Positions 10,984 to 51,376 of a stretch of 64,000 nt of DNA are shown one piece after another. The position numbers and the translations under genes are program-made. Origin of the DNA: Actinomycetota bacterium (lineage in GTDB: Bacteria; Actinomycetota; Thermoleophilia; BMS3ABIN01); contig JAMCPM010000002.1 of assembly GCA_023382335.1 (NCBI GenBank), positions 115,173-179,172 of the forward strand, given 5' to 3'. Numbering within the stretch: the first letter of the stretch is position 1; each line of letters begins with the position of its first letter. Under the pieces are notes generated by a model that saw nothing but the letters and a program-made list of their open reading frames with translations, did not search any database and was not told the origin of the DNA.

Positions 10984-12717
10984 TTGAAATCTTTCAGGCT
11001 TCACAGCCAGGAGATGCGTTGGGGACCGGAAGTCGATCCTCTTAGAATCGGCTGTGGCTGGACCCCAGAAGAACTTGAGCGTCCCTGGCTTCTTATCGAG
11101 AGTTCCGCCGGCGATTCTCATCCCGGCAGCGTTCACCTTTCGGGGCTGGTTGAAGGTATCAGTAAGGGCGCCGGCAATGCGGGGCTGGCGGTAGGCCGCT
11201 ACAGTTGCACCGACATGTGTGACGGCATCGCACAGGGGACAGCGGCGATGAGCTACTCACTGGCATCCCGCGAGTTGCTGGCGATGGCGACAGAGCTTCA
11301 TTTCCACAGTGGGCATTTCGACGGATGGACAGCGGTTTCATCTTGCGACAAGGCGATCCCTGCCCATCTTATTGCGGCTGCCAGACTTGATGCTCCGGTA
11401 ATCTTCATGCCCGGCGGAGTTATGCATACGGGGCCAGGGGATGTTTCCATAGATCGGATGGCCGAACTCTACGCCCGGCTCAACCGGGGCCAGATCAGCG
11501 AAGCAGAGTATCGTTATCATAGCCTCACTGCTGCGCCTTGCGCCGGCGCATGCAACTTTCTGGGGACTGCGGTGACCATGCAGATTCTCATCGAGGCCAT
11601 GGGACTATGTCTGCCCTCGGCCGCCTGTTGCCCGACAACGGAAGCAGCGCAAATGCTCCTTGCGGAGGCTTCCGGGATGGCGGTGGCATCACTGATCAAG
11701 AGGCGCATCCCTGCACGAGAAATTATAACCGGTGATGCGATAGATAATGCTCTGGTGGTCCATGCCGCTGCCGGGGGTTCCACAAACGCCATGCTCCACC
11801 TGCCCGCACTTGCCGCTGAGCTAGGACTGGATTTTTCATGGAAAAGGGTGCGCGAGATCAACGAGCAGGTACCCTGGATTCTCGACCTAAGGCCTTCAGG
11901 AAAACATACTGCCGACCTCTTCTGGTACGCTGGCGGCGTGCCCCGGCTTATGTCCCAGGTAAGGGAACACCTGCATCTGGATGTAATGACGGTTACGGGG
12001 AAGACTCTGGGCGAAACCCTTCTTGAGGAGGAACGATCCGGAAATCCGTCTGAACGAGCCGAAAAACTGGCAAACTTTGGCCTGGCCGGTGAGGACATAA
12101 TCCGTCCTGCCGGGAAGCCGCTTTCCCCACGCGGAAGCCTGGTTGTGCTGGAAGGAAACCTGGCGCCAGGCAGCGCCGTTTGCAAGCGCTCGGCTGTGGT
12201 CCCGGCCATGAACAAATTTGAAGGCAGGGCGAGGGTTTTTGACGGACAGATGCCCGCGCTCGAGGCTGCCCTAGCCGGTGACATTCATCCCGGGGATGCG
12301 ATCGTGGTCCGCTTCGAAGGCCCTCGCGCCTCAGGCATGCCAGAAATGTTTTATCTTACCGCGGCGCTCTCAGCTGATACCGAATTAAACGAGAGCGTTG
12401 CCTTGATTACCGACGGCAGGTTCTCAGGCGCCACCCGGGGACCCTGCATCGGCCATGTTTGCCCGGAGGCGGCAGCCGGAGGCCCAATCGCATTGGTTGA
12501 GGATGGTGACATAATCACTGTGGACCTGGAAGCCGGGAAATTGGACCTCACAGGCATAGGCGATAGGCGTGAAACTGCCGAAAAGGTAATAGAGGGTTTA
12601 GAAAGGCGAAGTACTCGGCTTGCGCCCTGGCAGGCGCCGAAGAGGAGCGGTTTGCTGGATTTGTACACCAGGCACGCGGGTCCTTCGAACGAAGGCGCTC
12701 GAATGTCGCCGGGTTGA
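10984..12717 (+). CDS. ilvD: dihydroxy-acid dehydratase (IlvD/EDD family)
   Basis: Family hallmark motifs CDGIAQG, SCDKAIPAHL and GGSTNAMLHL; 577 aa; TTG start. Confidence 0.85.
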   Translation: MKSFRLHSQEMRWGPEVDPLRIGCGWTPEELERPWLLIESSAGDSHPGSVHLSGLVEGISKGAGNAGLAVGRYSCTDMCDGIAQGTAAMSYSLASRELLAMATELHFHSGHFDGWTAVSSCDKAIPAHLIAAARLDAPVIFMPGGVMHTGPGDVSIDRMAELYARLNRGQISEAEYRYHSLTAAPCAGACNFLGTAVTMQILIEAMGLCLPSAACCPTTEAAQMLLAEASGMAVASLIKRRIPAREIITGDAIDNALVVHAAAGGSTNAMLHLPALAAELGLDFSWKRVREINEQVPWILDLRPSGKHTADLFWYAGGVPRLMSQVREHLHLDVMTVTGKTLGETLLEEERSGNPSERAEKLANFGLAGEDIIRPAGKPLSPRGSLVVLEGNLAPGSAVCKRSAVVPAMNKFEGRARVFDGQMPALEAALAGDIHPGDAIVVRFEGPRASGMPEMFYLTAALSADTELNESVALITDGRFSGATRGPCIGHVCPEAAAGGPIALVEDGDIITVDLEAGKLDLTGIGDRRETAEKVIEGLERRSTRLAPWQAPKRSGLLDLYTRHAGPSNEGARMSPG

Positions 12718-12889
12718 GGCAGCGGGATCTCTGGAGGCTAGCTCCACGGATTTTTCCCACTTGGCTCTTTGTACTGACCCAGGTCAATCGCCGCGAAGTG
12801 GGAGAATTGCTTTGAAGCACCGGCTGAAGTCAATATTAGAAAGAGTCCTTCGCTTGACAAAGCGAGAGGCTGGGGGCAAGAAGTTCGGC

Positions 12890-15244
12890 ATGTACGAGCC
12901 GTATGTCCCGACGAGGGCTCGGCAGCAGGGGAAGAAGGTGCTGCGAGACCTCATCATCGTTTTCTCGGTTTTTTCGCTTGCATTCATTTTGACGACCGTA
13001 TTCGACCTTCACGGCTCATTCGAAGACGCCTCCCTGCAGATGAAAGACAGCCCATTCCAGTACGATGAGGTTGTGGTAGCGCTCGCATTTTTAGCAGCGG
13101 CTTTGGGCGTCTTCGCTCTCAGGCGCTGGCGGGAGCTGGAGAGTGAGATCATTGAAAGGATCCATATCGAAGAGGCGTTGGTCGACAGCGAAGAGCGCTA
13201 TCGCACGCTGGCCGAAGCCGCGCAGGATTTCATCTTCATAGTCGACAGGCAGGGTCTCATACGCTATTTGAATAGTTATGCGGCCAAAAAACTGGGAAGC
13301 ACTCAGGTAGAACTGATCGGCAAGAACCTTGATCTTGTGCTTCCCCAGGAAATGGCCCAGCAGCAGAATCAAGAACTCACGAAGGTTTTTTCCGAAGGCC
13401 ATCCGATTGAGGTTGAGACCCAGGCTCGTTTTGATGGAGAGGATTCATGGCTCAGCACTTCTCTGGTTCCCATTCATGACGAAAACGGCAGGTTCGAGAA
13501 TGTGCTTGGTATCTCACGCGATATCACCCAAAGGAAGCTTGCGCAGGATGCTCTCGAGCACAGCAAGGAAGGTTTGGAGGTCATGGTTACCAAACGAACG
13601 GAAGAGTTGGGTAGCGTCAACCAGCGCCTGAAGCTCGAACTGGACGAGAAGAAACTCGCTGAAGAGCGTTTGCAGGCCGTGAACCGCGCCCTGAGAACTT
13701 CCATGGCGGCCAGCCGGGCCCTTACGGCAGCTGGCGGAGAGGCCGAACTACTCAGGGAGATCTGCCAGGCTGTCGTCGCAATTGGCGGATACCGTTTTGC
13801 CTGGGTTGGATTCGCCGAGAAGAATCCGGGAAAAATGGTTCGTCCGGTTGCCTCCGCGGGTTTCGGAGATGGTTATCTGGACGCGGTCAAAGTCACTTGG
13901 GATGATTCTTCGAGTCTGGGTCTCGGCCCTGCCGGCACGGCAATTTGCACCGGCAAGCCCAGTGTTGTCCGCGACGTGCTGATAGATGAGTCCTACGCTC
14001 CCTGGCGGGGTGACGCCCTCAAGCGGGGATTTGCCTCGACCGTTTCTCTGCCGCTGAAAGCTGACGAAGAGAGCTTCGGGTCCCTTAACATTTACGCGGC
14101 CGAGCCGGAAGCATTCGATGCCGAGGAGGTCGAACATCTGAGCGAGCTGGCCAGCGATCTTTCTTACGGAATCTGCGCCATCAGGACTCGCGGTGAAAGG
14201 GATGAGCAGGCAGTGGCATTGCGAAGGACAGGCGAGCAGTTGTCACTGCTGCTGCAGTCTCTGCCGATCATTTTTTACACCAGTAGCGCCACCGATGATT
14301 TCGGCGTCACTTACGTCAGCGACAACGTGACTACGTTTACCGGTTATACGCCTGAAGAGGTAACCCTGGATTCATCGTTCTGGATGGACCGCATCCATCC
14401 TGATGATGCACCCAGGGCTTTCGAAGAAATTCCCAAGGTGTTCGATCGCGGATTCCATGAGTATGAATATCGCTGGCGCGGCGCTGACGGCAACTATAAG
14501 TGGTTCCTCGATATCCTTCGTCTTGTAAAGGCTCCTGAAGGGGAACAGGACTATATCGTGGGTATGTGGCTGGATATCACCGCACGCAAACAGGGTGAGG
14601 AAAAATTGTTGCAGGTCAAGGATCAACTCGAGGCGGATGCCCAGGTGAAGTTGGATGAGCTGACGGAGATTCGCCTCTGCCTCGATAAGACAGCTGAGAA
14701 GCTTGAAGACCGGAAGCGGCAAGATCATTTACTTAACAAGATGGACGAGTTGTTACAAAGTTGTCTAACCGTAGATGAAGCGTATGCGGTTTTCGCACGC
14801 TTTGCGAGCCGGCTCACGGAAGGGGACTCCGGAGCTTTATATCTACTGGATGAAGCCTCCCGAAGTTATACGCAGACCATTGGCTGGGGCAGCGAGCCTC
14901 CGCTGGAGAAAACGTTCGGACCCAGCGATTGCTGGTCGCTACGGCTTGGCAAGATCCACCTTTCCGCACAGGGCCAGACCGGCATGCGGTGCGCCCACGC
15001 CGGCACGGAACGGAAGTACCTTTGCACGCCGGTAAGGTTGGCGGGCAATGCCTTCGGCGTGTTGGTGCTTTCGCCATCCGATGGAGCTGATGATGAAAAG
15101 ATGGTGGAAAGGCGGGAGTTGGCGTCTTCCCTTGTGGGAAGAGTCGGCATGACCATCATCAATCTGCGGCGGCGAGAGGCAGCCGACATCATTGCCGGCA
15201 GCTCACCGGACACTTCCTGGCAAGGGAAGCTGCGGTCCCTCTAG
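12890..15244 (+). CDS. membrane-anchored multi-PAS/GAF sensor protein without recognisable output domain
   Basis: Two TM segments, then PAS modules (e.g. ERYRTLAEAAQDFIFIVD..., LQSLPIIFYTS...YRWRGADGNYKWFL...) alternating with two GAF-like regions. No HisKA/HATPase, GGDEF, EAL or HTH seen. ATG at 12890 chosen; the tool ORF start at 12620 overlaps ilvD. Confidence 0.65.
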   Translation: MYEPYVPTRARQQGKKVLRDLIIVFSVFSLAFILTTVFDLHGSFEDASLQMKDSPFQYDEVVVALAFLAAALGVFALRRWRELESEIIERIHIEEALVDSEERYRTLAEAAQDFIFIVDRQGLIRYLNSYAAKKLGSTQVELIGKNLDLVLPQEMAQQQNQELTKVFSEGHPIEVETQARFDGEDSWLSTSLVPIHDENGRFENVLGISRDITQRKLAQDALEHSKEGLEVMVTKRTEELGSVNQRLKLELDEKKLAEERLQAVNRALRTSMAASRALTAAGGEAELLREICQAVVAIGGYRFAWVGFAEKNPGKMVRPVASAGFGDGYLDAVKVTWDDSSSLGLGPAGTAICTGKPSVVRDVLIDESYAPWRGDALKRGFASTVSLPLKADEESFGSLNIYAAEPEAFDAEEVEHLSELASDLSYGICAIRTRGERDEQAVALRRTGEQLSLLLQSLPIIFYTSSATDDFGVTYVSDNVTTFTGYTPEEVTLDSSFWMDRIHPDDAPRAFEEIPKVFDRGFHEYEYRWRGADGNYKWFLDILRLVKAPEGEQDYIVGMWLDITARKQGEEKLLQVKDQLEADAQVKLDELTEIRLCLDKTAEKLEDRKRQDHLLNKMDELLQSCLTVDEAYAVFARFASRLTEGDSGALYLLDEASRSYTQTIGWGSEPPLEKTFGPSDCWSLRLGKIHLSAQGQTGMRCAHAGTERKYLCTPVRLAGNAFGVLVLSPSDGADDEKMVERRELASSLVGRVGMTIINLRRREAADIIAGSSPDTSWQGKLRSL

Positions 15245-15418
15245 CGATTTCCCGTCTTTCCCCCCGAAAAGCTGGGTTTTCTCATCCAAGTTTGGTTTTA
15301 AACAAAGGGAATAAGGGAATCAGCTAGAAAAGAAATCTACTAACTTAACTCACAACTGCGGCACGCGGACGGTTATTTTGCCGTTCGGCAGGGCGGAGCT
15401 GCAGACGTGGGGAGGCTC

Positions 15419-15465
15419 GGTAGGGACTTAACTCTAGGGCTTAAGTCCCTACCGCTATTTTTTTT
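15419..15465 (+). terminator. rho-independent terminator (13-bp stem GGTAGGGACTTAA/TTAAGTCCCTACC + T8)
   Basis: Perfect inverted repeat followed by GCTATTTTTTTT. Terminates the PAS/GAF sensor transcript and overlaps the 3' end of the convergent apgM-like gene. Confidence 0.8.
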
Positions 15466-16648
15466 CCAGACCTAAAAACCAGCCCATCAGATCCCAGCCG
15501 CGCTCGAACTTTAGCGCCGCGGATGACGCTGAGTCTTCGTCGAAGGATTGATCCCGGTCTGAAGCGGCCGCGGGATCGTAACAGACGAAGGGAACCGGTT
15601 CTGCAGTGTGTGTCCTGATACCGAGTGGAGTCGCATGATCAGGCAATATCAGGATGCGGTAATGGGTCGATGTAGCCAGTCCTTCAAGAAGGTTTCCCAG
15701 CAATAGAGCATCAAATCGCTCTATGGCCTCGACTTTTGCGGAGGAATCGCCCGAGTGGGACGCTTCGTCGGGAGACTCTACATGTACGTAGACGAAGTCC
15801 TTGTTTTTCAGCTCCTTGAGGGCGTACCGGGCTTTGGCGGCATAATCGGTATCCAGCCAGCCCGTTGCTCCGGGCACCTCGATGACCTCAAGGCCAGCAT
15901 ATTTGCCAAGCCCTTTGACCAGGTCAACTGCTGATATAACCGAGCCTTCCAGTCTGTAACGTTCCTTGAAGGTGGGCATTGAAGGAGCCGTGCCCTGACC
16001 CCAAAGCCAGATCATGTTGGCCGGCAGCTTGCCTTCAAGCTTTCGTTTTTCATTGATGGGGTGGCCGGCCAGCAGTTGGGCCGACTCCTGCATGAGCCCG
16101 CGAAGCCAGGCGGATTCTTCTCCTTGTGGCAGGTTAGGGTCGACCGGCTGTCCGGTGATGTCATGTGGCGGAGTGCATAAGGCTTGCAGTGCCTTGCCTT
16201 TCGATACCATGATATGACGGTAGCTCAACCCCGGGAAGAATGTCGCATCTTCGCCACCCAGGTTCTGCTGCAGGTAATCGATCAGTTCTGCGGCTGCAAC
16301 TGTGTCGATATGTCCGGCGGAGAAATCGCGCATCAGCCCATCTTCGACGCAGACGAGGTTGCAGCGGAAGGCAACGTCGCCTGACGCGAGATCGATCCCG
16401 AGGCTTGCCGCTTCCAAAGGAGCCCTGCCGGTGTAATATAAGTGAGGGTCGTAACCGAGTACGCAGAGGTTGGCGACATCGCTGCCGGGGGGAAAGCCTT
16501 CAGGAATGGTGCTTGTCAGACCGATCGTTCCCGACCTGGCTAGTCTGTCAAAATTGGGGGTATTTGCGGCCTGCAGCGGTGTGCGGCCGCCAAGTTCCGG
16601 CCTGTGCTCATCGGCTGAACCGTCAGGGATGAGAACCAGATATTTCAT
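15455..16648 (-). CDS. apgM: archaeal-type cofactor-independent phosphoglycerate mutase homologue (ApgM family)
   Basis: MKYLVLIPDGSADEHRPELGGRTPLQAANTPNFDRLARSGTIGL matches the ApgM/metalloenzyme-superfamily N-terminus. ATG at 16648 with upstream RBS; lies 8 nt downstream of thrC in the same operon. Confidence 0.8.
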   Translation of the reverse strand: MKYLVLIPDGSADEHRPELGGRTPLQAANTPNFDRLARSGTIGLTSTIPEGFPPGSDVANLCVLGYDPHLYYTGRAPLEAASLGIDLASGDVAFRCNLVCVEDGLMRDFSAGHIDTVAAAELIDYLQQNLGGEDATFFPGLSYRHIMVSKGKALQALCTPPHDITGQPVDPNLPQGEESAWLRGLMQESAQLLAGHPINEKRKLEGKLPANMIWLWGQGTAPSMPTFKERYRLEGSVISAVDLVKGLGKYAGLEVIEVPGATGWLDTDYAAKARYALKELKNKDFVYVHVESPDEASHSGDSSAKVEAIERFDALLLGNLLEGLATSTHYRILILPDHATPLGIRTHTAEPVPFVCYDPAAASDRDQSFDEDSASSAALKFERGWDLMGWFLGLEKK

Positions 16649-16656
16649 CATCCGTC

Positions 16657-17721
16657 CTAAAGCCCGAGGGTTTTGACTACCTGGTCGAAATCGGCAGCGA
16701 TACTGATTACCGCCGCGCCATTTGCGATGGCCGTGTCCGGATCCTTGAGGCCGTGTCCGGTGAGGACGCAAACGACCGTGTCGCCCTCCTGGAAAAGCCC
16801 TTCCCGGTGCTTCTTGATTACGCCGGCGATACTTGCCGCTGAAGCCGGCTCACAGAATGTCCCCTCAGTCGAGGCGACCAGCTTGTAGGCGGCGATTATC
16901 TCTTCGTCAGTGACTGAATCGATGAGGCCGCTGGAGTCGCCGGCCGCAGCAAGCGCCTGATCGCCGCGCGCAGGGTTGCCGATGCGGATTGCTGTGGCTA
17001 TTGTCTCTGGATCTTTGACTGGGTGGCCGATCACAAGCGGCGCTGCGCCGGCAGCCTGGAAGCCGATCATCCGGGGAACGCCATCGCACTTGCCAGCCTC
17101 TCGATACTCGTTAAAACCCTTCCAGTAGGCTGTTATGTTTCCGGCATTTCCAACCGGGATCGCCAGGAAGTCCGGCGCCCTGCCAAGTGAATCCACGACC
17201 TCGAAGGCGCCGGTCTTCTGTCCTTCGAGCCGGTACGGATTGATCGAGTTGACCAGTTGCACCGGGTGTTTGTCGACGATGCCACGGACGATTTCGAGCG
17301 CCTGATCGAAATTCCCTGATACAGACAGTACCTGGGCTCCATGCGTTACCGCCTGGGCCAGCTTGCCTGCCGCTATCTTGCCTTCAGGAATGATTACTAT
17401 GCAGCGGATGCCCGCCCGGCCGGCATAGGCTGCTGCCGAGGCCGAAGTGTTGCCGGTCGAAGCGCAGATGACGGCGCTGGCGCCTTCCTCAATTCCTTTG
17501 GACACGGCCAGGGTCATCCCGCGGTCCTTGAAGCTGCCCGTCGGGTTGAGCCCCTCAAGTTTGAGGAAAAGATTAAGGCCTAACCGTTCGCCCAACCGCG
17601 GCGCTGACAACAGTGGCGTGGAACCCTCGGCAAGACTGATTACCGGGGTAGCGTCGCTGACTGGAAGAAACTGCCGGTATCGTTCTATCAGGGATCTGTC
17701 CCGGGGACCGCTATTGCTCAT
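16657..17721 (-). CDS. thrC: threonine synthase
   Basis: PLP-lysine motif [12 protein letters not shown]; 354 aa. Confidence 0.9.
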
Positions 17722-18988
17722 TTTCGTTGTCTTCTACGCGGATTGGCCGCGGTTGTGATTTGACTACGGGCAGCCCGGCGATTTTTTCCAGAGCTTCCCG
17801 GAAGCCTGCTTCCTTGACCGGATGAAAGACCATTACCAGTTCGGCGTGTGCCCCCCGCCCCTGCTGGATCACGCTTTCGACACTGACTTCGTGATCGCCG
17901 AAGACCTGGGCTATCTCGGCCAGAACACCTGGCTCATCCTCTACTTCGAGACGCAGGTAAAATTTCGAGATGACCTCATCGTCGGGATAGAACTCCATCT
18001 CCCGCCACGAGGCGATGTTCTCGAACTCTCCGGGTTTTTCCCGGGCGATGATTGACGCTATGTCGCTGACGACCGCAGAAGCGGTCTCCATGCCGCCCGC
18101 TCCCGGACCCGAAAGCATGATCTCGTCGATCGCGTTTCCCTTAAGGAAGACGGCGTTGTAGGCGCCGCTGACGGTTGCCAGTGGATGGTCTTTTTTCAAG
18201 AGTGCCGGGTAGACGCGGACGTTGATCCGATCGCCGTAGAGTTTCGCCACGCCCAGCAGCTTGATCGTCAGGTCGAGATTGCGGGCGTAGGATATATCCA
18301 GGGAGTTGATATGCTCGATGCCGACGCAGGTGACGTCCTCGAGATCCACAGCGGTGTGAAAGGCGATGGATGCCAGGATCGCCATCTTGGCTGCCGCGTC
18401 TTTGCCGCTGATGTCTTCGGTTGGATCGGCTTCGGCGTATCCCCATTCCTGCGCATTGGCCAGCGCGTCTCCGTACTTGGCGCCGGTACGGCTCATTTCC
18501 GAGAGGATGAAATTCGTGGTTCCGTTGACGATTCCGTAAACGCTGGTGAGATCGGAGGCCACCATCGACTCGCGCAGAACCTTGATCACGGGGATCGCCC
18601 CGGCGACGCTGGCCTCAAATCCGATCTGTGTGTTGTTTTCGCGGGCCAGGCGGAAAAGATAAAAACCTTTTTGCGACAGAAGCTGTTTGTTGGCTGTGAC
18701 TACCGCCTTGCCACGTTCAAGAACGCTTGTGATGTAGTCGAACGCAGGCTCTAAGCCGCCGATGAGCTCGACAACCAGTGAGATCTCGGAATCCTCGAGA
18801 ATTTCCTCGAAGTTGTCCGTGAACAGATCCCGGGGGGCATCTTCCCGCGGGACGGAAATATCGCGGACCAATATCTTCTTGACGGAAACGGAGGTTCCGG
18901 TCGCCTGTGCGATCTCGATCGCCTGATTGTTGATGAGATTGTAAACGTTGGACCCAACCGTGCCATAACCGAGCAGACCGATGGATAT
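17711..18988 (-). CDS. hom: homoserine dehydrogenase with C-terminal ACT domain (start codon uncertain/non-canonical)
   Basis: NAD-binding N-terminus [20 protein letters not shown] and catalytic core, C-terminal ACT. The tool ORF begins at TTG 18871, but the GxGxxG segment is in frame upstream. No ATG/GTG/TTG lies between the in-frame TGA (19049-19051) and 18871; only ATA at 18988 or ATT at 19048. Confidence 0.8.
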
Positions 18989-19129
18989 TCTGTTTGTACT
19001 GGAATCAGCCGTTGCTAATTCTCTCCCAATAACGTAGACAGATGAAATTCATGGCGCGCTATTGCACACGAGGAAGTGCACAAGGCCAAATGTTATCAGG
19101 AGAACCTTACCGAGGGAAGCGCCGAAACG

Positions 19130-20455: not shown

Positions 20456-22213
20456 ATGCGATCTTCTTTTACGCGGACCAGGGCATTTCTTTATTGCGTA
20501 GCAGGGGCGGCAGCGGGTCTGATCTATGCCGTCTTTGCCTATCTCATCGTTGCCAGGTTCGGCAGTGACCATGAAGCCATGCATATAGGTGTAGCGCCCA
20601 TCCTTGCAGGAGCTGCCGCCTATGTGATTGGCAGGGAAGCCGACCGCATAAACAAGCAGTCACAAATGCTTGCCGACGCCAAACAGCAATTCTCCGCCCT
20701 GACCCATGCCGCCATCACCCAGCGAGACTGGAATGTCAGCTTTGAAGATCCTCAGATTCCCACTTGCTGGGAAGTGAAGAACTGTGAGGCCAAGGATTGC
20801 CCTTCATACGGTAAACATCATGTCCGTTGCTGGCTGGTCGCCGGGACCTTCTGCCGCGGTGAAGTCCAGGGGCGCTTTGCCCAGAAGCTCGGTGACTGCG
20901 CTAAATGCGAGGTCTACCAGCTTTCGACCGAACGGGATCCCATCGATGAGATCGGTGAGAATTTCAACAGTCTGATGTGGGCCTTGCGCGAGAAAGAAGA
21001 GATGCTCTCCGAAACGAATGATGAGTTGCAGAGCCAGTACGGTGAACTCGAGCTGTTGCACAGGCAGGCACGTGAGCGAGCGGATACGGATATGTTAACC
21101 GGCTTGCGCAATCACGCGCATTTTCAGGATCACCTTCACAGTGAAGTCGAAAAGGCCCTGGCGCTAAAACAGCCGCTGTCACTAATCATGCTCGACCTGG
21201 ACCGGTTTAAATCCGTCAATGATGAATTCGGCCATCAGAAAGGGGATGAGGTCCTGCAGCTGGTTGGCAAGCTGATCCGCGATGAGATCGGGAATTCGGC
21301 TTATGGAGCGCGGTATGGGGGCGAGGAGTTCGCTATCGTCATGCCTTCGACATCAGCGAAGCTGGCAATTGAGACAGCTGATAACCTGCGTCGCCGAATG
21401 AAATCTTTAGAAGATGAAGTCAGTCTGCCGCCGGGATTCGTAGGCGGCAGCTTTGGAGTGGCTGATCTGCCCCATTGTGCCAGTGACGCCGACAGCCTGA
21501 TATCCGCATCTGATGCGGCCCTTCTGTTCGCCAAACGCAAAGGGAGGGACCGGGTAGCATATTTCCGTGATCTTTCTGACACGGAGCTTCGCGCTGGTGA
21601 CATGGACAAGCTTCACAGCCGTCTCGAGGGAGCCAGCCTGCAGACTATTCGTGCGCTGGCCGAGGCGGTCGACGCCAGCGATCAATATTCCAAATGCGAC
21701 CAGTCGCAGATGGCCAGAGTTGCAGCAGCAATGGCTGAGCGGCTTGGTATGGAGGAGGAGAAAGCCGATGCCCTGGCACTGGCGGCGAGGCTGCACGACA
21801 TAGGCAAAGTGGGTGTCCCGAGCTCGATCCTGCGGAAGAAGGAAAAACTGTCGCCGGCAGAGCTGTTACTGGTTCAGCAGCACCCTGCGATCGGCCAACG
21901 TCTCCTAAAGGAAGTCGAACAGATACAGGAGTTGATCCAGGCAATCCTCTATCATCACGAGCGCTGGGACGGCCAGGGATATCCCGAGAAGCTCAGGGGA
22001 GAACAGATTCCGGTAATGGCCCGCGTGATCGGTATCATGGATGCTTACCGGGCGATGCTCAGCGATCGCCCCTATCGCAAGGCGCTCACTCCCGCCGCAG
22101 CGATTCAGGAGTTGCGCAAGGGAGCCGGGAGCCAGTTTGATCCGCAGCTCGTAGAGATATTTGTCGAGTTGATCGGCAAAGACCAGGCTCCGAAGCTGCG
22201 GCATGCCGGATGA
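20456..22213 (+). CDS. membrane protein with conserved 8-Cys module + GGDEF diguanylate cyclase + HD-GYP phosphodiesterase domains
   Basis: Two TM helices; Cys module CWEVKNCEAKDCPSYGKHHVRCWLVAGTFCRGEVQGRFAQKLGDCAKCEVY; GGDEF with RYGGEEF; HD-GYP with HDIGKVGVP and HHERWDGQGYP. Confidence 0.85.
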   Translation: MRSSFTRTRAFLYCVAGAAAGLIYAVFAYLIVARFGSDHEAMHIGVAPILAGAAAYVIGREADRINKQSQMLADAKQQFSALTHAAITQRDWNVSFEDPQIPTCWEVKNCEAKDCPSYGKHHVRCWLVAGTFCRGEVQGRFAQKLGDCAKCEVYQLSTERDPIDEIGENFNSLMWALREKEEMLSETNDELQSQYGELELLHRQARERADTDMLTGLRNHAHFQDHLHSEVEKALALKQPLSLIMLDLDRFKSVNDEFGHQKGDEVLQLVGKLIRDEIGNSAYGARYGGEEFAIVMPSTSAKLAIETADNLRRRMKSLEDEVSLPPGFVGGSFGVADLPHCASDADSLISASDAALLFAKRKGRDRVAYFRDLSDTELRAGDMDKLHSRLEGASLQTIRALAEAVDASDQYSKCDQSQMARVAAAMAERLGMEEEKADALALAARLHDIGKVGVPSSILRKKEKLSPAELLLVQQHPAIGQRLLKEVEQIQELIQAILYHHERWDGQGYPEKLRGEQIPVMARVIGIMDAYRAMLSDRPYRKALTPAAAIQELRKGAGSQFDPQLVEIFVELIGKDQAPKLRHAG

Positions 22214-22235
22214 TTAGCCGGGCGATGCTCTCGTT

Positions 22236-24032
22236 ATGATCGATTTCCTCTCGAAAAGATTGTCATCAATGAAGCGGATCCTGTTTGTGATGCTAGCTTT
22301 CGGCTTGTCCATAGGCCTGGTGTTCCCATATATCGCCAGCCCCTTTGTCACATGGGATCCAGAAAAGAAGATCTATTTCCGCCTTGCATGCCTGGCCGCG
22401 GGTCTGGCCGTAGGCTCATTCTGTTATTACCTCGTTAAGATCACCCTTTATCAGCGCAACAAGATGCTTGCCCTCCAGAAACGCGAACTGGAGGAAGCCA
22501 AATCTCGCTTCGGTTCATTGACCCATAATGCCATCGAATCGCAGATGTGGGATGTGAGCTTCGAAGATTCACGGGTTCCGACCTGCTGGCAGACCAAGGA
22601 TTGCAGCCAGGGGGATTGTCCCGCTTTCGGACGGGAACATCTGCGCTGTTGGTTGATAGCCGGGACTTACTGTGGGGGCCAGATACAGGGCCGGTTTGCC
22701 CAGAAGCTCGGTGACTGTTCCAAATGCGATGTCTATTTGCAGGCGGTTGGAGAAAATCCTATCAGCGAGATCGGTGAAAACTTCAACAGCCTGATGCTGG
22801 CCGTCAGGGAGAAGGAGGACCTGCTGGCGGCTGCTAACGAGGAACTGAAAGATCAATATATTGAGCTGGAGCTGCTGCACAGGCAGGCGCGTGAGATGGC
22901 AAACACGGATCTGCTCACAGGGTTGCGAAACCATGCCCATTTTCAGCATCATATCCGCTGGGAGATCGATAAGGCCGGGCAAGGCAGCCTGCCGCTTTCT
23001 CTGATCATGCTCGATCTCGACCATTTCAAGTCAATTAACGACAGCTACGGGCATCAAAAAGGAGACGAAGTCCTCAAGCGGGTCGGCAAGAAGCTCAGTG
23101 AAGAGATTAAGAGTGGGGGCTACGCCGCCAGATACGGCGGCGAGGAGTTTGTCGTCCTGTTGCCGGGCTCGGTGGCAGAAAAGGCGATGGCCATCGCCGA
23201 CAGGTTGAGAGACAGCATCAAGGAGATCGCCGGCGAGATCGAGCTGCCCCAACGGGCAGTCGGCGCCAGCTTCGGTGTGGCCGATCTGCCTGAGTGTGCC
23301 AGCGATGCCGGCAGCCTTATCTCTGCGGCCGATTCGGCGTTGCTTTTTGCCAAGCGCCGGGGGCGCGACCGGGTAGCATATTTCAAGGACCTCAACGGCA
23401 CCGAACTCCAGGAAGGCGATGTCGAGCGCCTGCACAATCGGCTCGAAGGCGCCAGCCTGCAAACGATCCGGGCGCTGGCCGAGGCGGTCGACGCCAACGA
23501 CGACTACACGCTAGAGGCCAGCAGTTCCATGGATGGCGTCGCGGCTGCCCTGGCCGAGCAGCTCGGCCTCGATAAGGAGCAGGCGGACACGCTGTTTCTG
23601 GCCTCGAGACTTCACGACATCGGCAAAATCGGTGTGCCGGGGTCCATCCTCAGGAAGACAGAGAAACTTTCAGTGGAAGAACTGGCAAAGCTGCAACAAC
23701 ATCCCGAAATCGGGCAGCGGATACTCCAGGAAGCGATGCAACTCCAGGATCTGATCTCCGCCATTCTCTATCATCACGAGCGCTGGGATGGGACCGGCTA
23801 TCCCGAGAGGCTTCATGGTAAGCAGATTCCTCTGACGGCGCGGATCGTCGGCATCATGGATGCGTACCGGGCAATGCGCTCTGACCGCCCTTACCGCAAA
23901 GCGCTTAGCCGCGAGAACGCGATCACCGAACTCGAGAAGGGAGCCGGCACCCAGTTCGATCCACGGCTGGTAAAGAAGTTCGTCGAGCTTGCCCGCCAGG
24001 ACAACGTCGAGAAATTTCGCCGCGCCGGTTAG
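22236..24032 (+). CDS. paralogous 8-Cys module + GGDEF + HD-GYP membrane protein (tandem duplicate)
   Basis: Same architecture: CWQTKDCSQGDCPAFGREHLRCWLIAGTYCGGQIQGRFAQKLGDCSKCDVY; RYGGEEF; HDIGKIGVP; HHERWDGTGYP. Confidence 0.85.
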   Translation: MIDFLSKRLSSMKRILFVMLAFGLSIGLVFPYIASPFVTWDPEKKIYFRLACLAAGLAVGSFCYYLVKITLYQRNKMLALQKRELEEAKSRFGSLTHNAIESQMWDVSFEDSRVPTCWQTKDCSQGDCPAFGREHLRCWLIAGTYCGGQIQGRFAQKLGDCSKCDVYLQAVGENPISEIGENFNSLMLAVREKEDLLAAANEELKDQYIELELLHRQAREMANTDLLTGLRNHAHFQHHIRWEIDKAGQGSLPLSLIMLDLDHFKSINDSYGHQKGDEVLKRVGKKLSEEIKSGGYAARYGGEEFVVLLPGSVAEKAMAIADRLRDSIKEIAGEIELPQRAVGASFGVADLPECASDAGSLISAADSALLFAKRRGRDRVAYFKDLNGTELQEGDVERLHNRLEGASLQTIRALAEAVDANDDYTLEASSSMDGVAAALAEQLGLDKEQADTLFLASRLHDIGKIGVPGSILRKTEKLSVEELAKLQQHPEIGQRILQEAMQLQDLISAILYHHERWDGTGYPERLHGKQIPLTARIVGIMDAYRAMRSDRPYRKALSRENAITELEKGAGTQFDPRLVKKFVELARQDNVEKFRRAG

Positions 24033-24262: not shown

Positions 24263-24293
24263 TATCAAACCTTGGATGGTTTTAGGAGAAGCA

Positions 24294-25814
24294 ATGGACC
24301 CTCATCGTATTACCATATTTGACACGACGCTGCGGGACGGCGAACAGTCCCCCGGCATCAGTCTCAATTCCTTCGAGAAGCTGGAGATTGCCGAGCAGCT
24401 GGCGCGGCTGGGAGTCGACGTCATCGAAGCCGGCTTTCCGATATCGTCTCCCGGCGATTTCGAAGGCGTTGAAAAGATCGCCCGCAATGTTTCCGGTGTG
24501 ACTATCTGCGCCCTGGCGCGGGCCATGGAGAAAGACGTGCGCACAGCCTGGGACGCGATCAGGGAAGCTGAGCGCCCCCGCATCCATACTTTCATTTCAA
24601 CCAGCGACGTTCATCTCAAGCATCAGTTGCGCAAGACGCGCGAGGAAGTGCTGGAGGCAGCCAAACGCATAGTCGCGCTGGCTGTGAGCCTGTGCGATGA
24701 TGTCGAGTTCTCGGCCATGGATGCCACCCGTAGCGACCCAGACTACCTGGCCGCGGTGTTGCAGGCGGCAATCGACGAGGGCGCCACCACCATCAATATT
24801 CCTGATACCGTCGGTTACGCCATTCCCAGCGAGTTCGGCGATTTCATCCGGGAGCAGTTCAAGAAGGCCCCCGGCCTGAAAGACGTGGCCGTGAGCGTGC
24901 ATTGCCATAACGATCTGGGCCTGGCGGTTGCAAATTCCCTGGCGGCGGTAGAGAACGGCGCTACCCAAGTGGAATGCGCTATCAACGGTCTGGGGGAACG
25001 TGCGGGCAATGCTTCCCTGGAAGAGATCGTTATGATCCTGGAGACCCGCAAGCGCACGCTGGGACGGGCGACCGGCGTCAAGACCGTGGAGATTGCGCGC
25101 ACCAGCCGCCTGGTGAGCCAGCTGACCGGGTACGACGTGCAGCCCAACAAGGCGATTGTGGGCAAGAACGCTTTTGCTCACGAGTCCGGCATCCACCAGG
25201 ACGGCGTGCTGAAGGAGCGCACAACCTATGAGATCATGAATGCGGCCAGCGTCGGCCGGGGGCAGAGCGACCTGGTGCTGGGCAAGCACTCCGGGCGCCA
25301 CGCTCTCAAGGCGGCGATGGAAGAGCTGGGTTATAACCTGAGCGAGGAGGACCTCAACCAGGCTTTTGTGCATTTCAAGAAGGTCGCGGACAAGAAGAAG
25401 CAGATCACCGCGGTCGACCTGGAGCATCTGGTCAGCGAAGAGATACGCGAGCTCACGGATATATATGAGCTGAAGTCATACGAGGTCAGTTCCAGTTCGG
25501 AGTTCGTCCCGACCTGTCAGGTGATCATAGAAAAGGAAGGGGAGAAGCTGCTGGGCAAGAGTTTCTCCGGCGGATCGATGGAATCTATCTTCAAGGCCAT
25601 CGATGACGCCGTAGGCACCAAGGGCAAGCTGAAGGATTACCAGGTGCGTTCCGTGACCGAGGGCAAGGATTCCCTCGGCGAGGTGCGCGTCGTGGTCGAG
25701 GTACAAGGCAAGGCGTATGCGGGCACGGCGCTGTCGATCGATGTGGTCGAGGCCAGCGCCAAGGCATATGTCCGCGCGCTCAATAATGCATACAGAGCCG
25801 GGGCGGTGACATAG
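24294..25814 (+). CDS. leuA: 2-isopropylmalate synthase
   Basis: ITIFDTTLRDGEQSPGIS HMGL-like TIM barrel plus LeuA dimerisation domain. AGGAG RBS before ATG 24294 (in-frame ATG also at 24276). Confidence 0.9.
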   Translation: MDPHRITIFDTTLRDGEQSPGISLNSFEKLEIAEQLARLGVDVIEAGFPISSPGDFEGVEKIARNVSGVTICALARAMEKDVRTAWDAIREAERPRIHTFISTSDVHLKHQLRKTREEVLEAAKRIVALAVSLCDDVEFSAMDATRSDPDYLAAVLQAAIDEGATTINIPDTVGYAIPSEFGDFIREQFKKAPGLKDVAVSVHCHNDLGLAVANSLAAVENGATQVECAINGLGERAGNASLEEIVMILETRKRTLGRATGVKTVEIARTSRLVSQLTGYDVQPNKAIVGKNAFAHESGIHQDGVLKERTTYEIMNAASVGRGQSDLVLGKHSGRHALKAAMEELGYNLSEEDLNQAFVHFKKVADKKKQITAVDLEHLVSEEIRELTDIYELKSYEVSSSSEFVPTCQVIIEKEGEKLLGKSFSGGSMESIFKAIDDAVGTKGKLKDYQVRSVTEGKDSLGEVRVVVEVQGKAYAGTALSIDVVEASAKAYVRALNNAYRAGAVT

Positions 25815-27086
25815 ATGGCAAGACCAATGAATATAACCGAGAAGATCCTGGCGCGCTCCTGCGGCCGGGAGGATGTTCAGCCCGGCGATTTCATCAACGC
25901 CAGGCTGGATCTGGCGCTGGCAAACGACATCACGGCGCCGCTGGCTATCAAGGAGTTTGAGTCGGCGGGAATCGAGCGGGTCTGGGACCCGGAGAAAGTC
26001 GTCATGGTATGCGACCACTTTGTTCCCAATAAGGACATAAAATCAGCCGAGCAGACCAAGCTGGTGCGCGATTTCGCGCGTCGTCAGGGGCTGGTTAATT
26101 TCTTTGACGTCGGACGGATGGGCATCGAGCATGTGATCCTGCCGGAGAAAGGCCTGGTTGTGCCCGGAGATGTCGTGATAGGCGCCGATTCCCATACCTG
26201 CACATACGGGGCGCTGGGAGCTTTCGCCACGGGCGTCGGCAGCACGGATCTGGCGGCCGGCATGGCCACCGGGGAAGTCTGGTTGCGGGTTCCGGAGACG
26301 ATCAGGTTCAATTACGAAGGCGAGCCGGGGCGCTATGTGACCGGCAAGGATTACATCCTCTACACCATCGGCATGGTCGGCGTCGACGGGGCGCTCTACC
26401 AGTCCATGGAGTTCGCTGGCGGCGCCATCAGGAACCTGTCGATGGACGGACGCTTCACCATGTGCAACATGGCCATCGAGGCCGGCGGCAAGAGCGGCAT
26501 CGTCGAACCCGACGCAGTCACCGAGGAATATTGCCGCGGGCGGGCCCTGCGGGAGCCTGTGATGCTGGCGAGCGATGAGGCGGCCGGCTACATGCGCGTC
26601 ATAGATATAGACGTCTGCACGATCGAGCCGCAGGTGGCAAAGCCGCATCTGCCTTCCAATTCCGTGCCGGCCTCCGAGCTTGCCGGTCTGAAGATCGATC
26701 AGGTGGTCATAGGTTCCTGCACCAACGGTCGTATCGAGGACTTGAGGATGGCGGCGGAGGTGCTCAAGGGGCACAAGGTCCATCCTGACATCAGGACCCT
26801 GGTCTTCCCCGGAAGCCAGCAGGTCTATCGGCAGGCTATGAAGGAAGGGCTGATAGACATCTTCGTCGAGGCTGAGGCCGCGGTCAGCACGCCGACGTGC
26901 GGTCCCTGCCTGGGTGGCCACATGGGCATTCTGGCTGCCGGCGAGCGTTGCGTCTCGACGACCAACCGCAATTTCGTTGGCCGGATGGGCCACCCCGAGA
27001 GCGAAGTATATCTGGCCGGGCCTTATGTGGCCGCGGCCACGGCGGTAGCCGGTACGGTGACGGTTCCACAGGAGGTGCTGGCATGA
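25815..27086 (+). CDS. leuC: 3-isopropylmalate dehydratase large subunit
   Basis: Aconitase-family catalytic domain, 423 aa (short LeuC/HACN type); ATAGATG junction with the leuA stop. Confidence 0.85.
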
Positions 27087-27123
27087 CGATCGATTTCGGC
27101 AATTGCGACAGGGCGGTGCCCTC

Positions 27124-27627
27124 ATGATCTTCGAAGGCACAGCACACACATATGGGCGCGACGTCGATACCGACGTCATCATCCCGGCGCGGTATCTGAA
27201 CACGCATGATCCCGACGAGCTCGCGGCCCATTGCATGGAAGACATCGACAAGGATTTCATCGAGCGGGTGCAACCGGGCGACATCATCGTCGCCGGGGAG
27301 AACTTCGGCTGCGGCTCTTCCAGGGAACAGGCGCCGGTAGCGATCAAGGCTGCGGGGGTTTCCTGCGTGGTCGCGGCTTCGTTTGCGCGGATCTTCTATC
27401 GCAACGCCATCAACATCGGGCTGCCGATCCTGGTATGTCCGGAGGCGGCGCGCGATGTGAAGAGCGGCGACCGGCTCAAGGTTGATCTGGACAAGGGCGA
27501 GGTCGAGGACCTGACCCAGGACCGCACATTCCAGGCGGACCGGTTTCCCGAATTCATGCAGAAGATCGTGACTGCGGGAGGCCTGATGAACTATGTCAAG
27601 GAACGGAGCGGAGGATCGAATGCATAA
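27124..27627 (+). CDS. leuD: 3-isopropylmalate dehydratase small subunit
   Basis: MIFEGTAHTYGRDVDTDVIIPARYL aconitase swivel domain, about 167 aa. Confidence 0.85.
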   Translation: MIFEGTAHTYGRDVDTDVIIPARYLNTHDPDELAAHCMEDIDKDFIERVQPGDIIVAGENFGCGSSREQAPVAIKAAGVSCVVAASFARIFYRNAINIGLPILVCPEAARDVKSGDRLKVDLDKGEVEDLTQDRTFQADRFPEFMQKIVTAGGLMNYVKERSGGSNA

Positions 27628-28678
27628 CATAGCTGTCATGCCCGGCGACGGAACCGGACCCGAAGTCGTTCGCGAAGGGCTGAAGGTCCTCGCCGCGGCT
27701 GCGTTGCGATTCGGTTTCGAGTACGAGACCACCGACTATGATTTTGGCGGCGACCGGTATCTGAAGACCGGTGAGACCCTGCCGGACTCGGCCCTGGAGG
27801 AGCTCAAGGGCCACGACGCCATCTTCCTGGGCGCCATCGGGCATCCCGACGTCAAGCCGGGCATACTGGAGCAGGGAATCCTGCTCAAGGCGCGTTTCGA
27901 GCTGGACCAGTATATAAATCTGCGGCCGGTCAAGTTGTTCCCCGGTGTGGAGACGCCGGTCAAGGACAAGGGACCGGAAGACATCGATTTCGTGGTCGTC
28001 CGCGAGAACACCGAGGGCCTCTATGTCGGCGCCGGCGGCTTCCTCAAAAAGGGAAAGCCCGATGAGGTGGCCATACAGGAGAGCATCAACACCCGCAAGG
28101 GCGTCGAGCGTTGCATCCGCTACGCATTTGATTATTGCCAGCGCCGTGGCAAGGACAACAAGCTGACCATGTGCGGCAAGACCAACGTGCTCAACTATTC
28201 GCAGGACCTGTGGATGCGGACCTTCAACGAGACGGCGCCGGATTATCCGGGAGTGAAGCCCGATTACGCGCACGTGGACGCCATCTGCATGTGGTTCATC
28301 AAGAACCCGGAATGGTTCGACGTCATCGTCACCGACAACATCTTCGGCGACATCATCACCGACCTCGGGGCGATGATCCAGGGCGGCATGGGCATCGCCG
28401 CGGGCGGCAACATCAATCCTGAGGGCGTTTCCATGTTCGAGCCGATCGGCGGCTCGGCCCCGAAATACACGGGCCAGAATGTGATCAACCCTCTTGCGGC
28501 GATAGCCGCAGTGCAGATGATGCTCGAGTTTTTGGGAGAAAACGAGGCGGGCGCCGCGGTCGAGGCCGCGATAACGGATGTCACGGCCAACAAGCTCGAC
28601 AGCCTGGCGGTCGGCCGGACTGGATATTCAACATCAGAGATCGGCGACATGGTGGCCGAGAGGGTAGCCACTAGCTAA
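27620..28678 (+). CDS. leuB: 3-isopropylmalate dehydrogenase
   Basis: MHNIAVMPGDGTGPEVV isocitrate/isopropylmalate dehydrogenase family N-terminus; operon context; overlaps the leuD end. Confidence 0.85.
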   Translation: MHNIAVMPGDGTGPEVVREGLKVLAAAALRFGFEYETTDYDFGGDRYLKTGETLPDSALEELKGHDAIFLGAIGHPDVKPGILEQGILLKARFELDQYINLRPVKLFPGVETPVKDKGPEDIDFVVVRENTEGLYVGAGGFLKKGKPDEVAIQESINTRKGVERCIRYAFDYCQRRGKDNKLTMCGKTNVLNYSQDLWMRTFNETAPDYPGVKPDYAHVDAICMWFIKNPEWFDVIVTDNIFGDIITDLGAMIQGGMGIAAGGNINPEGVSMFEPIGGSAPKYTGQNVINPLAAIAAVQMMLEFLGENEAGAAVEAAITDVTANKLDSLAVGRTGYSTSEIGDMVAERVATS

Positions 28679-28721
28679 CCAGTCCGGAGCGCGCCGGCGC
28701 CGGAAGGCTGAAAGGAGTCTC

Positions 28722-29636
28722 ATGCCAATAACGGAAGTTTCCAAGATCTGGATGAACGGGAAGCTGGTGGACTGGGCTGATGCCCAGGTTCATCTGCTAA
28801 CCCATGCGTTGCACTACGGGTCGGGCGTATTTGAGGGAATCCGGGCCTACGATACCAAAAAAGGGACTCATGTCTATCGCCTGACCGAGCACATCGAGAG
28901 GCTGATGCGCTCCGCCAAGATATACATGATGGACGTGCCTTTCACGGTCGAGGAACTGGTGCAGGCGACCAAGGACGTCATCAGGGCCAACGAGCTGGAA
29001 AGCTGCTACGTCCGCCCGATAATCTATCGCGGCTACGGCGAGATGGGGCTCTTCCCCCTGCATGCGCCGGTTGACGTAGCGATCGCTGTCTGGCCTTGGG
29101 GGACCTATCTCGGCGACGAGGGAATCAAGCACGGCATCCGCGCCAAGATCTCCTCGTTCCGGCGTTTCGGGCCAAACAGCATGCCGCCGGCCGCCAAAGC
29201 CACCGGGCAGTACCTGAACTCGAGCCTGGCCAAGGTGGAGGCGGTCAAGGGCGGATACGAGGAGGCCATCCTGCTCGACGACCAGGGTAATCTTTCGGAG
29301 GGTTCCGGGGAAAACCTGTTCGTGGTCAGAAACGGAGTGGTGGCGACGCCGCCTACTTCCTCCGACGTCCTTGAAGGCATCACGGCGGATACCGTTGCCG
29401 CCATCTGCCGTGACGAGGGTATTCCTCTGGAGAAGAAGGTGATGGTGCGCTCGGATCTATATGTCGCTGACGAGGCGTTTCTCACCGGCACCGCGGCCGA
29501 AATCGTGCCGCTGCGAGAGGTCGATGACCGCGTCATCGGCGAGCCGGGCCCGATCACGAAGAAGATTCAGGATACTTTCTACGGCATCATCAAGGCCGAG
29601 AACGACAAATATGCTCACTATCTAGAGTGGGTTTGA
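28722..29636 (+). CDS. ilvE: branched-chain amino acid aminotransferase
   Basis: PLP fold type IV; MPITEVSKIWMNGKLVDWADAQVHLLTHALHYGSGVFEGIRAY. Confidence 0.85.
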   Translation: MPITEVSKIWMNGKLVDWADAQVHLLTHALHYGSGVFEGIRAYDTKKGTHVYRLTEHIERLMRSAKIYMMDVPFTVEELVQATKDVIRANELESCYVRPIIYRGYGEMGLFPLHAPVDVAIAVWPWGTYLGDEGIKHGIRAKISSFRRFGPNSMPPAAKATGQYLNSSLAKVEAVKGGYEEAILLDDQGNLSEGSGENLFVVRNGVVATPPTSSDVLEGITADTVAAICRDEGIPLEKKVMVRSDLYVADEAFLTGTAAEIVPLREVDDRVIGEPGPITKKIQDTFYGIIKAENDKYAHYLEWV

Positions 29637-29650
29637 ACGGCTAGGGCAAT

Positions 29651-47769: not shown

Positions 47770-47940
47770 AGCAATGTCTTCGGGGCGGGGTGGAATTCCC
47801 CACCGGCGGTAAGAGCCCGCGACCCTCTTTCGAGAGGCTGACCAGGTGCAAGTCCTGGGCCGACAGTCAAAGTCTGGATGGGAGAAGATAAGCTATCGGC
47901 TTTGCCCTGGGATGGTCTGTGTCCAGGGTACTTTTTTTTG
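47770..47940 (+). promoter_or_regulatory. FMN riboswitch (RFN element) with intrinsic terminator expression platform
   Basis: Conserved RFN cores GTCTTCGGGGCGGGGTGGAATTCCCCACCGGCGGTAAGAGCCCGCGACC and GACCAGGTGCAAGTCCTGGGCCGACAGTCAAAGTCTGGATGGGAGAAG (P1 CTTC...GAAG). Followed by CCCTGGGATGGTCTGTGTCCAGGG + T8 terminator. Immediately upstream of ribD. Confidence 0.85.
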
Positions 47941-48082
47941 GACGGCCGTCCCCGGCGGCCGCGGGTCCGTGCGGGCCTGACTTGCGTACGGATCTTCCTC
48001 CCTCGATTCCCCGAGATTATCAGTGCCAGCGCCGATGTTTAACGAAATCGCGGCGCCTGGCGATAAGGGAAGATATTTTACG

Positions 48083-49207: not shown

Positions 49208-49861
49208 ATGTTCACCGGTATCGTGGAAGAGCTCGGCAAACTGGTCAGCCTGGAGATGGGCTCGGACTCCGGCGTCATCACCGTCGAGGCTGACAAAGTG
49301 CTCGAGGGTTGCCAGCTGGGCGATTCTATCGCCGTCAACGGCGTCTGCCTGACGGCCCGCGCCTTCGGCTCGGGCACCTTCTCAGCCGACGTCATGCCGG
49401 AAACGCTCAGGAAGACCAATCTGGGGAACCTCAAGCGCGGCAGCCTGGTCAACCTGGAGCGGGCGCTGACCCTTTCGTCGCGGCTGGGCGGGCATCTGAT
49501 GCTCGGCCACGTGGACGCCACCGGCAAGATCATCTCCATCCGTCCGGAAGGAAACGCGATCTTTTACACCTTTTCCGCTCCCGAGGATATCCGCCGCTAC
49601 CTGCTGCCGCAGGGGTCGGTGGGCATCGACGGCATCAGCCTGACGATAGCCAGGCTGGAACGCGACCAGTTCAGCGTCTCACTGATCCCCCATACGGTGA
49701 AGGTGACGACCCTGGGACACAACGGAGTCGGCTATGAAGTCAACCTCGAGGCCGATGTGCTCGGCAAATATGTGGCGAAGATCATGCAGGGCAGCCTCCC
49801 CGGAGGACAGGGGGAAGGCGGCCTGACTCTCGACAAACTGGCGGAGGGGGGATTTTTGTAG
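49208..49861 (+). CDS. ribE: riboflavin synthase alpha chain
   Basis: MFTGIVEELGKL N-terminus; two lumazine-binding repeats. Confidence 0.85.
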   Translation: MFTGIVEELGKLVSLEMGSDSGVITVEADKVLEGCQLGDSIAVNGVCLTARAFGSGTFSADVMPETLRKTNLGNLKRGSLVNLERALTLSSRLGGHLMLGHVDATGKIISIRPEGNAIFYTFSAPEDIRRYLLPQGSVGIDGISLTIARLERDQFSVSLIPHTVKVTTLGHNGVGYEVNLEADVLGKYVAKIMQGSLPGGQGEGGLTLDKLAEGGFL

Positions 49862-49983
49862 GAAAGCGCGAAGCGGAAGGTCCGGGCCGGGAGCGGGGCC
49901 AGCTGCTGTAGCAGACCGCACCAGGCTCCCGAAACGAAACAATATTTTCAGGAAATCAGAAAACCAGAAGCAGGAAGGAAAAA

Positions 49984-51258: not shown

Positions 51259-51376
51259 CAGTTAAAGATCAAGTTAAAGATCAGGTAGCTGTCACTGGAG
51301 CTATGACGGCCGGCGGGCGCGCATGCGGCGCGCCCGCCGGCTCAACCCAAGACAAACAGACAGAAAGGATCAGCCG

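Follow-up and report, generated by a model that had tools for sequence, protein, structure and literature searches.

An ApgM-like protein of the HomK/ThrB2 family as the predicted homoserine phosphotransferase of an actinobacterial hom-thrC operon

A stretch of 64,000 nucleotides from an Actinomycetota bacterium (the window; assembly GCA_023382335.1, contig JAMCPM010000002.1, positions 115,173 to 179,172) carries on its minus strand a three-gene operon, which encodes a homoserine dehydrogenase (Hom), a threonine synthase (ThrC) and a protein that resembles the archaeal cofactor-independent phosphoglycerate mutase (ApgM). The third gene is an unexceptional representative of HomK/ThrB2 (TIGR02535), a known family that was predicted about twenty years ago, has been named twice and is genetically validated. 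We consider it likely, with a probability of about 0.85, that the operon makes threonine from aspartate semialdehyde and that the third protein acts as HomK, which phosphorylates homoserine. The present analysis shows family membership, residue conservation and gene linkage, and the literature shows ThrB function for two other members of the family. The three genes are listed below in the order of their coordinates.

15455 to 16648, minus strand: homK (thrB2; TIGR02535), predicted ApgM-like homoserine phosphotransferase, 397 aa, identified by NCBIfam and by alignment with BT2402.
16657 to 17721, minus strand: thrC, threonine synthase dependent on pyridoxal phosphate, 354 aa, identified by TIGR00260 and Pfam PALP.
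17711 to about 19018, minus strand: hom, homoserine dehydrogenase (C-terminal ACT domain), 435 codons long if begun at the relatives' start codon, identified by NF004976 and Pfam.

The original prediction, made from the sequence alone, had described a minus-strand trio of hom (with ACT), thrC and an ApgM-like gene, and model and Pfam matches confirm three co-directional genes. Hom matches NF004976 with 508 bits and contains the Pfam domains NAD_binding_3, Homoserine_dh and ACT. ThrC scores 334.6 bits against TIGR00260 (cutoff 167.1) and matches Pfam PALP, and the ApgM-like protein is composed of PhosphMutase (PF10143) and Metalloenzyme (PF01676) domains. The predicted junctions of 8–11 nt are correct in size, although hom and thrC are not separated by a gap but overlap: the ATG of thrC (17719–17721) overlaps the end of hom (stop codon 17711–17713) by 11 nt. 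The thrC stop codon (16657–16659) is separated from the homK ATG (16646–16648) by 8 nt, or by 5 nt from an adjacent ATG. The second ATG is taken as the start of homK, as the 100% identical protein at NCBI is 397 aa long and this start aligns with residue 1 of BT2402, a HomK from Bacteroides thetaiotaomicron. The proposed 3´ limit of the operon at 15455 is exact, being the last base of the TAG stop codon of homK. The 5´ limit that had been placed at 19051 is not a start codon; an in-frame TGA at 19049–19051 ends the open frame upstream of hom. The entire operon, which comes from an uncultured actinobacterium, is identical to that on contig JAMDCM010000016.1 of the metagenome-assembled genome (MAG) GCA_023489075.1.

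The earlier observation that no thrB is present was borne out for the 64-kb window. Its six-frame translation contains no GHMP kinase motif (PxGSGLGSSA-type), and Pfam scans of about 40 further open reading frames (ORFs) in it revealed neither a GHMP kinase nor a second phosphoglycerate mutase. The homK protein itself has no GHMP match in Pfam. The substrate of ThrC is O-phosphohomoserine. Because ThrC needs this compound and the operon offers no other maker, the ApgM-like protein is the candidate source of it.

The homK protein passes TIGR02535, named 'proposed homoserine kinase', with 551 bits against a trusted cutoff of 446.3. It also passes NF003242, named 'cofactor-independent phosphoglycerate mutase' (563 bits, cutoff 426), and the subfamily model TIGR00306 (525 bits), and it stays below both equivalog models of the archaeal mutases, NF003104 (321.9 bits, cutoff 489) and NF003160 (189 bits, cutoff 468). 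As a reference, the sequence of BT2402 was fetched from human-gut metagenome contigs via the cloning primer printed in the supplement of the GapMind preprint. The recovered gene (L087:5284–6507) is an ORF of 407 aa, both ends of which agree with the two primers, and it has D9, S56, E299, D346 and H347 at the published positions. The window HomK is 46% identical to BT2402 over 387 residues. It can also be aligned over its full length with two solved mutases, 2zkt (E = 3e-68) and 3idd (E = 2e-63), a match strong enough to assign it to their two-domain fold family. The bit scores of the four proteins are as follows.

Window protein: TIGR02535 551, NF003242 563, NF003104 322.
BT2402 (validated HomK): TIGR02535 604, NF003242 581, NF003104 329.
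2zkt (solved mutase): TIGR02535 325, NF003242 326, NF003104 598.
3idd (solved mutase): TIGR02535 276, NF003242 282, NF003104 530.

The score profile of the window protein is that of BT2402, and the solved mutases have the opposite profile. The functional evidence for the family is genetic. A BT2402 mutant of B. thetaiotaomicron is a threonine auxotroph, and an E. coli thrB::kan strain is rescued both by BT2402 and by DET_RS08350, a diverged homologue from Dehalococcoides mccartyi (bioRxiv 10.1101/2024.10.14.618325). Among gut genomes, those with thrB and those with thrB2 form complementary sets (PMC9026213). The TIGR02535 family is called ThrB2 in the latter study and HomK in the former.

To compare the active sites, a joint alignment was made of the window HomK, BT2402, the solved mutases 2zkt and 3idd, and those homologues (76) in GTDB representative genomes that could be aligned. 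Residues D9, S56, D294, H298, D337, H338 and H347 of the window protein are invariant across this alignment. The catalytic S56 and residues D9, D337 and H338 align with S56, D9, D346 and H347 of BT2402, and D294, H298 and H347 align with D302, H306 and H356. A Glu (E299 in BT2402) in place of the mutase Lys has been proposed as the specificity determinant of HomK (bioRxiv 10.1101/2024.10.14.618325). E291 of the window protein ('VHVESPDEASH') aligns with this E299 ('LHIEASDEAGH') and with the Lys of 2zkt and 3idd, and a Glu occupies the position in all 76 alignable homologues. In addition, three Arg of the mutases ('DRRAGR' and 'IRGAG') are replaced by S110, H113 and W216 in the window HomK. 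The loss of the Lys and of the three Arg would be in keeping with a substrate that is no longer doubly anionic. As regards the second metal site, the appendix of the GapMind 2026 preprint gives the ligands of BT2402 as D274, H278 and H325, and the recovered sequence has N, E and V at these positions; the conserved DxxxH...H ligands correspond to D302, H306 and H356 of BT2402.

These comparisons bear on the possibility that the third gene encodes a genuine glycolytic cofactor-independent phosphoglycerate mutase that merely sits in a threonine operon. The protein has the domain architecture of ApgM and aligns with 2zkt and 3idd over the full length; it passes NF003242 and TIGR00306, and its identical GenBank protein bears the mutase name. 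However, BT2402 passes NF003242 as well, and the solved mutases do not reach its cutoff of 426 bits (2zkt 326, 3idd 282), so that the GenBank name 'phosphoglycerate mutase' carries no functional evidence. The positive charges expected for the binding of phosphoglycerate are gone (Lys to Glu, and the three Arg to Ser, His and Trp), and a glycolytic enzyme would have no reason to be linked to hom and thrC across phyla. We therefore regard a mutase function as very unlikely. Like the archaeal ApgM proteins of Pyrococcus horikoshii (2zkt) and Thermoplasma acidophilum (3idd and 3kd8), the window HomK has the PF10143 and PF01676 domains, the nucleophilic Ser and the two-metal site. Unlike them, it has Glu291 for the Lys and S110, H113 and W216 for the Arg residues, falls below NF003104 and NF003160, and lies in a threonine operon.

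The linkage itself was assessed in 80 related loci, 64 of which are informative, having an upstream sequence of at least 2.6 kb. In 55 of the 64 informative loci, hom and thrC lie upstream of the homologue on the same strand, and because this linkage is kept in so many of them the hom-thrC-homK arrangement is not due to chance. The linkage is found in Actinomycetota, Omnitrophota, Planctomycetota, Armatimonadota, FCPU426 and other phyla. The nearest GTDB representatives are MAGs labelled Thermoleophilia, the best locus being 77% identical. In lineages other than that of the window, 54 of the 80 loci have an ORF for an aspartokinase (AA_kinase and ACT domains) on the homK strand; at L012:8225–9445, for example, it starts 49 nt after homK. 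An ORF of about 210 aa with a CoaB-like DFP domain is inserted between thrC and homK in 28 loci, many of which belong to Omnitrophota and Planctomycetota (e.g., L016:6286–6951). We considered such inserts as a clue to the phosphate donor and rejected them, as the recurrent CoaB-like ORF is uninformative in this respect.

Eight of the informative loci (L032, L033, L039, L049, L056, L057, L060 and L076) contain Glu-bearing HomK-like genes with neither hom nor thrC in the upstream sequence, which covers about 2.7–7 kb per locus. The genomes with these unlinked genes include MAGs of Methanotrichaceae, Methanosarcinales and Chloroflexota.

A phosphotransferase or phosphatase of the same family could also act on another amino acid, either producing threonine O-3-phosphate for cobalamin synthesis or acting on phosphoserine. 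Glu-bearing homologues that lie beside cobD have been speculated to make threonine phosphate (bioRxiv 10.1101/2024.10.14.618325), Glu291 would select an amino group rather than homoserine specifically, and the eight unlinked loci show that the Glu also occurs in homologues away from hom and thrC. In contrast, homK in the window is translationally linked to thrC and hom, no cobD lies nearby, and the protein is above the TIGR02535 cutoff, unlike the cobD-linked proteins that have been described. Moreover, no other product of the operon would provide the O-phosphohomoserine that ThrC requires. A substrate other than homoserine is thus highly improbable for this protein.

The preferred reading, HomK as the enzyme that phosphorylates homoserine, leads to the following pathway. 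Hom would reduce aspartate semialdehyde to homoserine, HomK would phosphorylate homoserine's γ-hydroxyl group, and ThrC would convert the resulting O-phosphohomoserine to threonine. The ACT domain of Hom suggests feedback control. As a member of the alkaline-phosphatase superfamily, HomK would employ two metal ions, one bound by D9, D337 and H338 and the other by D294, H298 and H347, and by homology with the cofactor-independent mutases the reaction would follow a two-step ping-pong mechanism. In the first step, a phosphorylated donor would transfer its phosphate onto Ser56; in the second, the phosphate would pass from Ser56 to the hydroxyl group of homoserine. Glu291, in place of the mutase Lys, would pair with the amino group of homoserine. 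The ping-pong scheme, the part played by Glu291 and the kind of donor are our inferences.

ATP is probably not the donor; a phosphoester or enol-phosphate metabolite is more likely, for example phosphoserine or phosphoenolpyruvate (PEP). PEP was suggested by TIGRFAMs, and the GapMind 2026 preprint argues that the donor is not ATP and probably not phosphoglycerate, and suggests phosphoserine (bioRxiv 10.1101/2024.10.14.618325). A true ATP-dependent kinase, as assumed in the assay proposed with the original prediction, is most improbable, since no nucleotide-binding domain appears in the Pfam results, the nucleophilic Ser and the two-metal site are of the phosphoester-transfer type found in the alkaline-phosphatase superfamily, and both published suggestions name other donors. 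Because the donor is probably not ATP, an assay with homoserine and ATP may give a false negative. A more specific and tentative possibility, which we hold to be somewhat doubtful, is that HomK is a phosphoserine:homoserine (or PEP:homoserine) phosphotransferase in which Glu291 binds the α-amino group of both donor and acceptor.

Compared with the systems already known, the window protein is like the HomK proteins BT2402 and DET_RS08350 in its catalytic Ser, metal ligands, specificity Glu, NCBIfam profile and clustering with hom and thrC. Unlike these type members, which come from Bacteroidota and Chloroflexota, it belongs to an actinobacterial (Thermoleophilia-like) MAG and is known here from sequence. 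The gene order in the window is hom-thrC-homK with a stand-alone Hom, whereas the operon of three genes in most Bacteroidetes codes for a fused, bifunctional enzyme of which Hom is a part, written Asd-Hom (PMC9026213). Like ThrB, HomK would catalyze the step from homoserine to O-phosphohomoserine and has the same kind of operon partners. Unlike ThrB, an ATP-using GHMP kinase, HomK has neither homology to that enzyme nor a GHMP domain or motif, and it probably does not use ATP. A further enzyme of this step, ThrH, is commonly classed as a HAD-family enzyme. ThrH is the phosphoserine:homoserine phosphotransferase of Pseudomonas aeruginosa and provides a precedent for a route with a donor other than ATP (bioRxiv 10.1101/2024.10.14.618325). 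It is not homologous to HomK (same preprint), and Pfam finds only domains of the ApgM/metalloenzyme type in the window protein.

Several points weigh against the assignment of homoserine phosphorylation to this gene. The in vivo ThrB function has been shown only for BT2402 and DET_RS08350, neither of which is actinobacterial. An early attempt at complementation with BT2402 failed, and the rescue obtained later was weak, with an increase in optical density of 0.14 in 47 h (bioRxiv 10.1101/2024.10.14.618325). No in vitro reconstitution of the HomK/ThrB2 reaction was found in the literature searched. The NCBI equivalog NF003242 names the homK protein a phosphoglycerate mutase, a point weakened by the fact that BT2402 passes this model too. 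Finally, hom has no canonical start codon in this population, so the operon may not be fully functional.

In the window, no ATG, GTG or TTG is present in frame upstream of the Rossmann motif of hom. The codon at the position of the relatives' start reads TTA (19016–19018, minus strand), and the same TTA is found in MAG GCA_023489075.1 and in the Logan assembly of run SRR10267473. Ten related loci with 67–83% Hom identity have a canonical start before the motif, which is TTG in six and ATG in four, and the closest relatives (97% and 92% Hom identity) have TTG at exactly the TTA codon of the window. The Prokaryotic Genome Annotation Pipeline (PGAP) calls an ATC start at 18980–18982, 12 codons downstream, which results in a Hom of 423 aa. 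The TTA could reflect a recent loss of the start codon, weak non-canonical initiation, or one read set that was assembled three times. The upstream region of hom contains a ribosome-binding signal and a conserved block.

19021 to 19027, minus strand: Shine-Dalgarno sequence (GGGAGAG) that precedes the TTA/TTG position of hom by 2 nt, with matching spacing in the relatives.
19085 to 19102, minus strand: conserved non-coding block of 18 nt, CTCCTGATAACATTTGGC, located upstream of the hom start at a distance of about 65 nt, recognized by its conservation.

In those of the ten related loci that show a purine-rich Shine-Dalgarno sequence (GGGAG or GGAG), it is located just upstream of the start. 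Its core is GGGAGAG in the three closest relatives, with variants such as GGGAGAA, GGGAG or GAGGAGA elsewhere, and it is followed mostly by TTG and by ATG in L006 and L007. The ATG at 19050–19052 was rejected as the start of hom, as it is out of frame and the relatives lack such an extension. This ATG opens an upstream ORF of 15 codons, MNFICLRYWERISNG (19005–19052, minus strand), which ends at a TGA just inside hom; L003 has a comparable upstream ORF that ends at the same TGA, and other relatives have none.

The block CTCCTGATAACATTTGGC is unique in the window, where 0.06 matches are expected. Seven related populations, of which five are GTDB-representative loci and two are closer MAG populations, have an identical core at the same position, with diverging flanks. 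Part of the block, TGATAACAT, is similar to an extended -10 element (TGnTAnnnT), and the block is probably the promoter or an operator of the operon. A structured RNA was considered for this block and rejected: there is no Rfam match, and the consensus fold of six sequences consists of three weak pairs with no covariation. We read it as a signal at the DNA level. The other end of the operon is marked by a hairpin.

15418 to 15454, strand not assigned: perfect 14-bp hairpin that directly follows the stop codon of homK at the operon's end, with a fold of -23.7 kcal/mol.

The hairpin is flagged as terminator-like on the plus strand (15435–15451). On the plus strand it precedes eight consecutive T, and this T stretch overlaps the Lys codons with which homK ends. 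The hairpin may therefore be a two-way terminator that is shared with the convergent PAS/GAF sensor gene (12620–15244).

Biosynthetic competence of the organism is suggested by ilvD and a leuA-leuCD-leuB-ilvE cluster, which are likewise encoded in the window. The branched-chain cluster (24276–31249) comprises leuC, leuD, leuB, a class IV aminotransferase (ilvE) and two LeuA-like synthases (24276–25814 and 29651–31249), the second of which may be a citramalate synthase; ilvD (10984–12717) is separate from it. An FMN riboswitch (RF00050, 112.6 bits; 47772–47893) precedes the ribD-ribE-ribBA-ribH riboflavin operon (48023–51853). Two tandem proteins of the GGDEF and HD-GYP type (20456–24032) are divergent from the NlpC/P60-hom region, and a further GAF-GGDEF protein is encoded at 55105–56412.

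The proposal that the third gene is a non-orthologous homoserine kinase is supported by the TIGR02535 match, the active-site residues and the genetics of BT2402; the idea is already published and incorporated in annotation models, and the gene is no open candidate. NF003242 is the source of the name 'cofactor-independent phosphoglycerate mutase' that GenBank gives to the 100% identical protein and to its relatives. The scores of the three reference proteins suggest that NF003242 covers the same family as TIGR02535 under an outdated name and that the product name merits revisiting. As a result of the misnaming, threonine synthesis would wrongly seem incomplete in metabolic reconstructions of these Thermoleophilia-like MAGs, and a false mutase may be counted in them. 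The practical value of the finding is the correction of this annotation, and the question of the phosphate donor and the mechanism belongs to the whole HomK family rather than to this locus. If the donor is phosphoserine or PEP, an idea already put forward in the GapMind 2026 preprint, no ATP would be spent at the homoserine step in many lineages that lack thrB, and threonine synthesis would be tied stoichiometrically to the serine pathway or to glycolysis; the actinobacterial HomK would then be one more tractable representative of the family.

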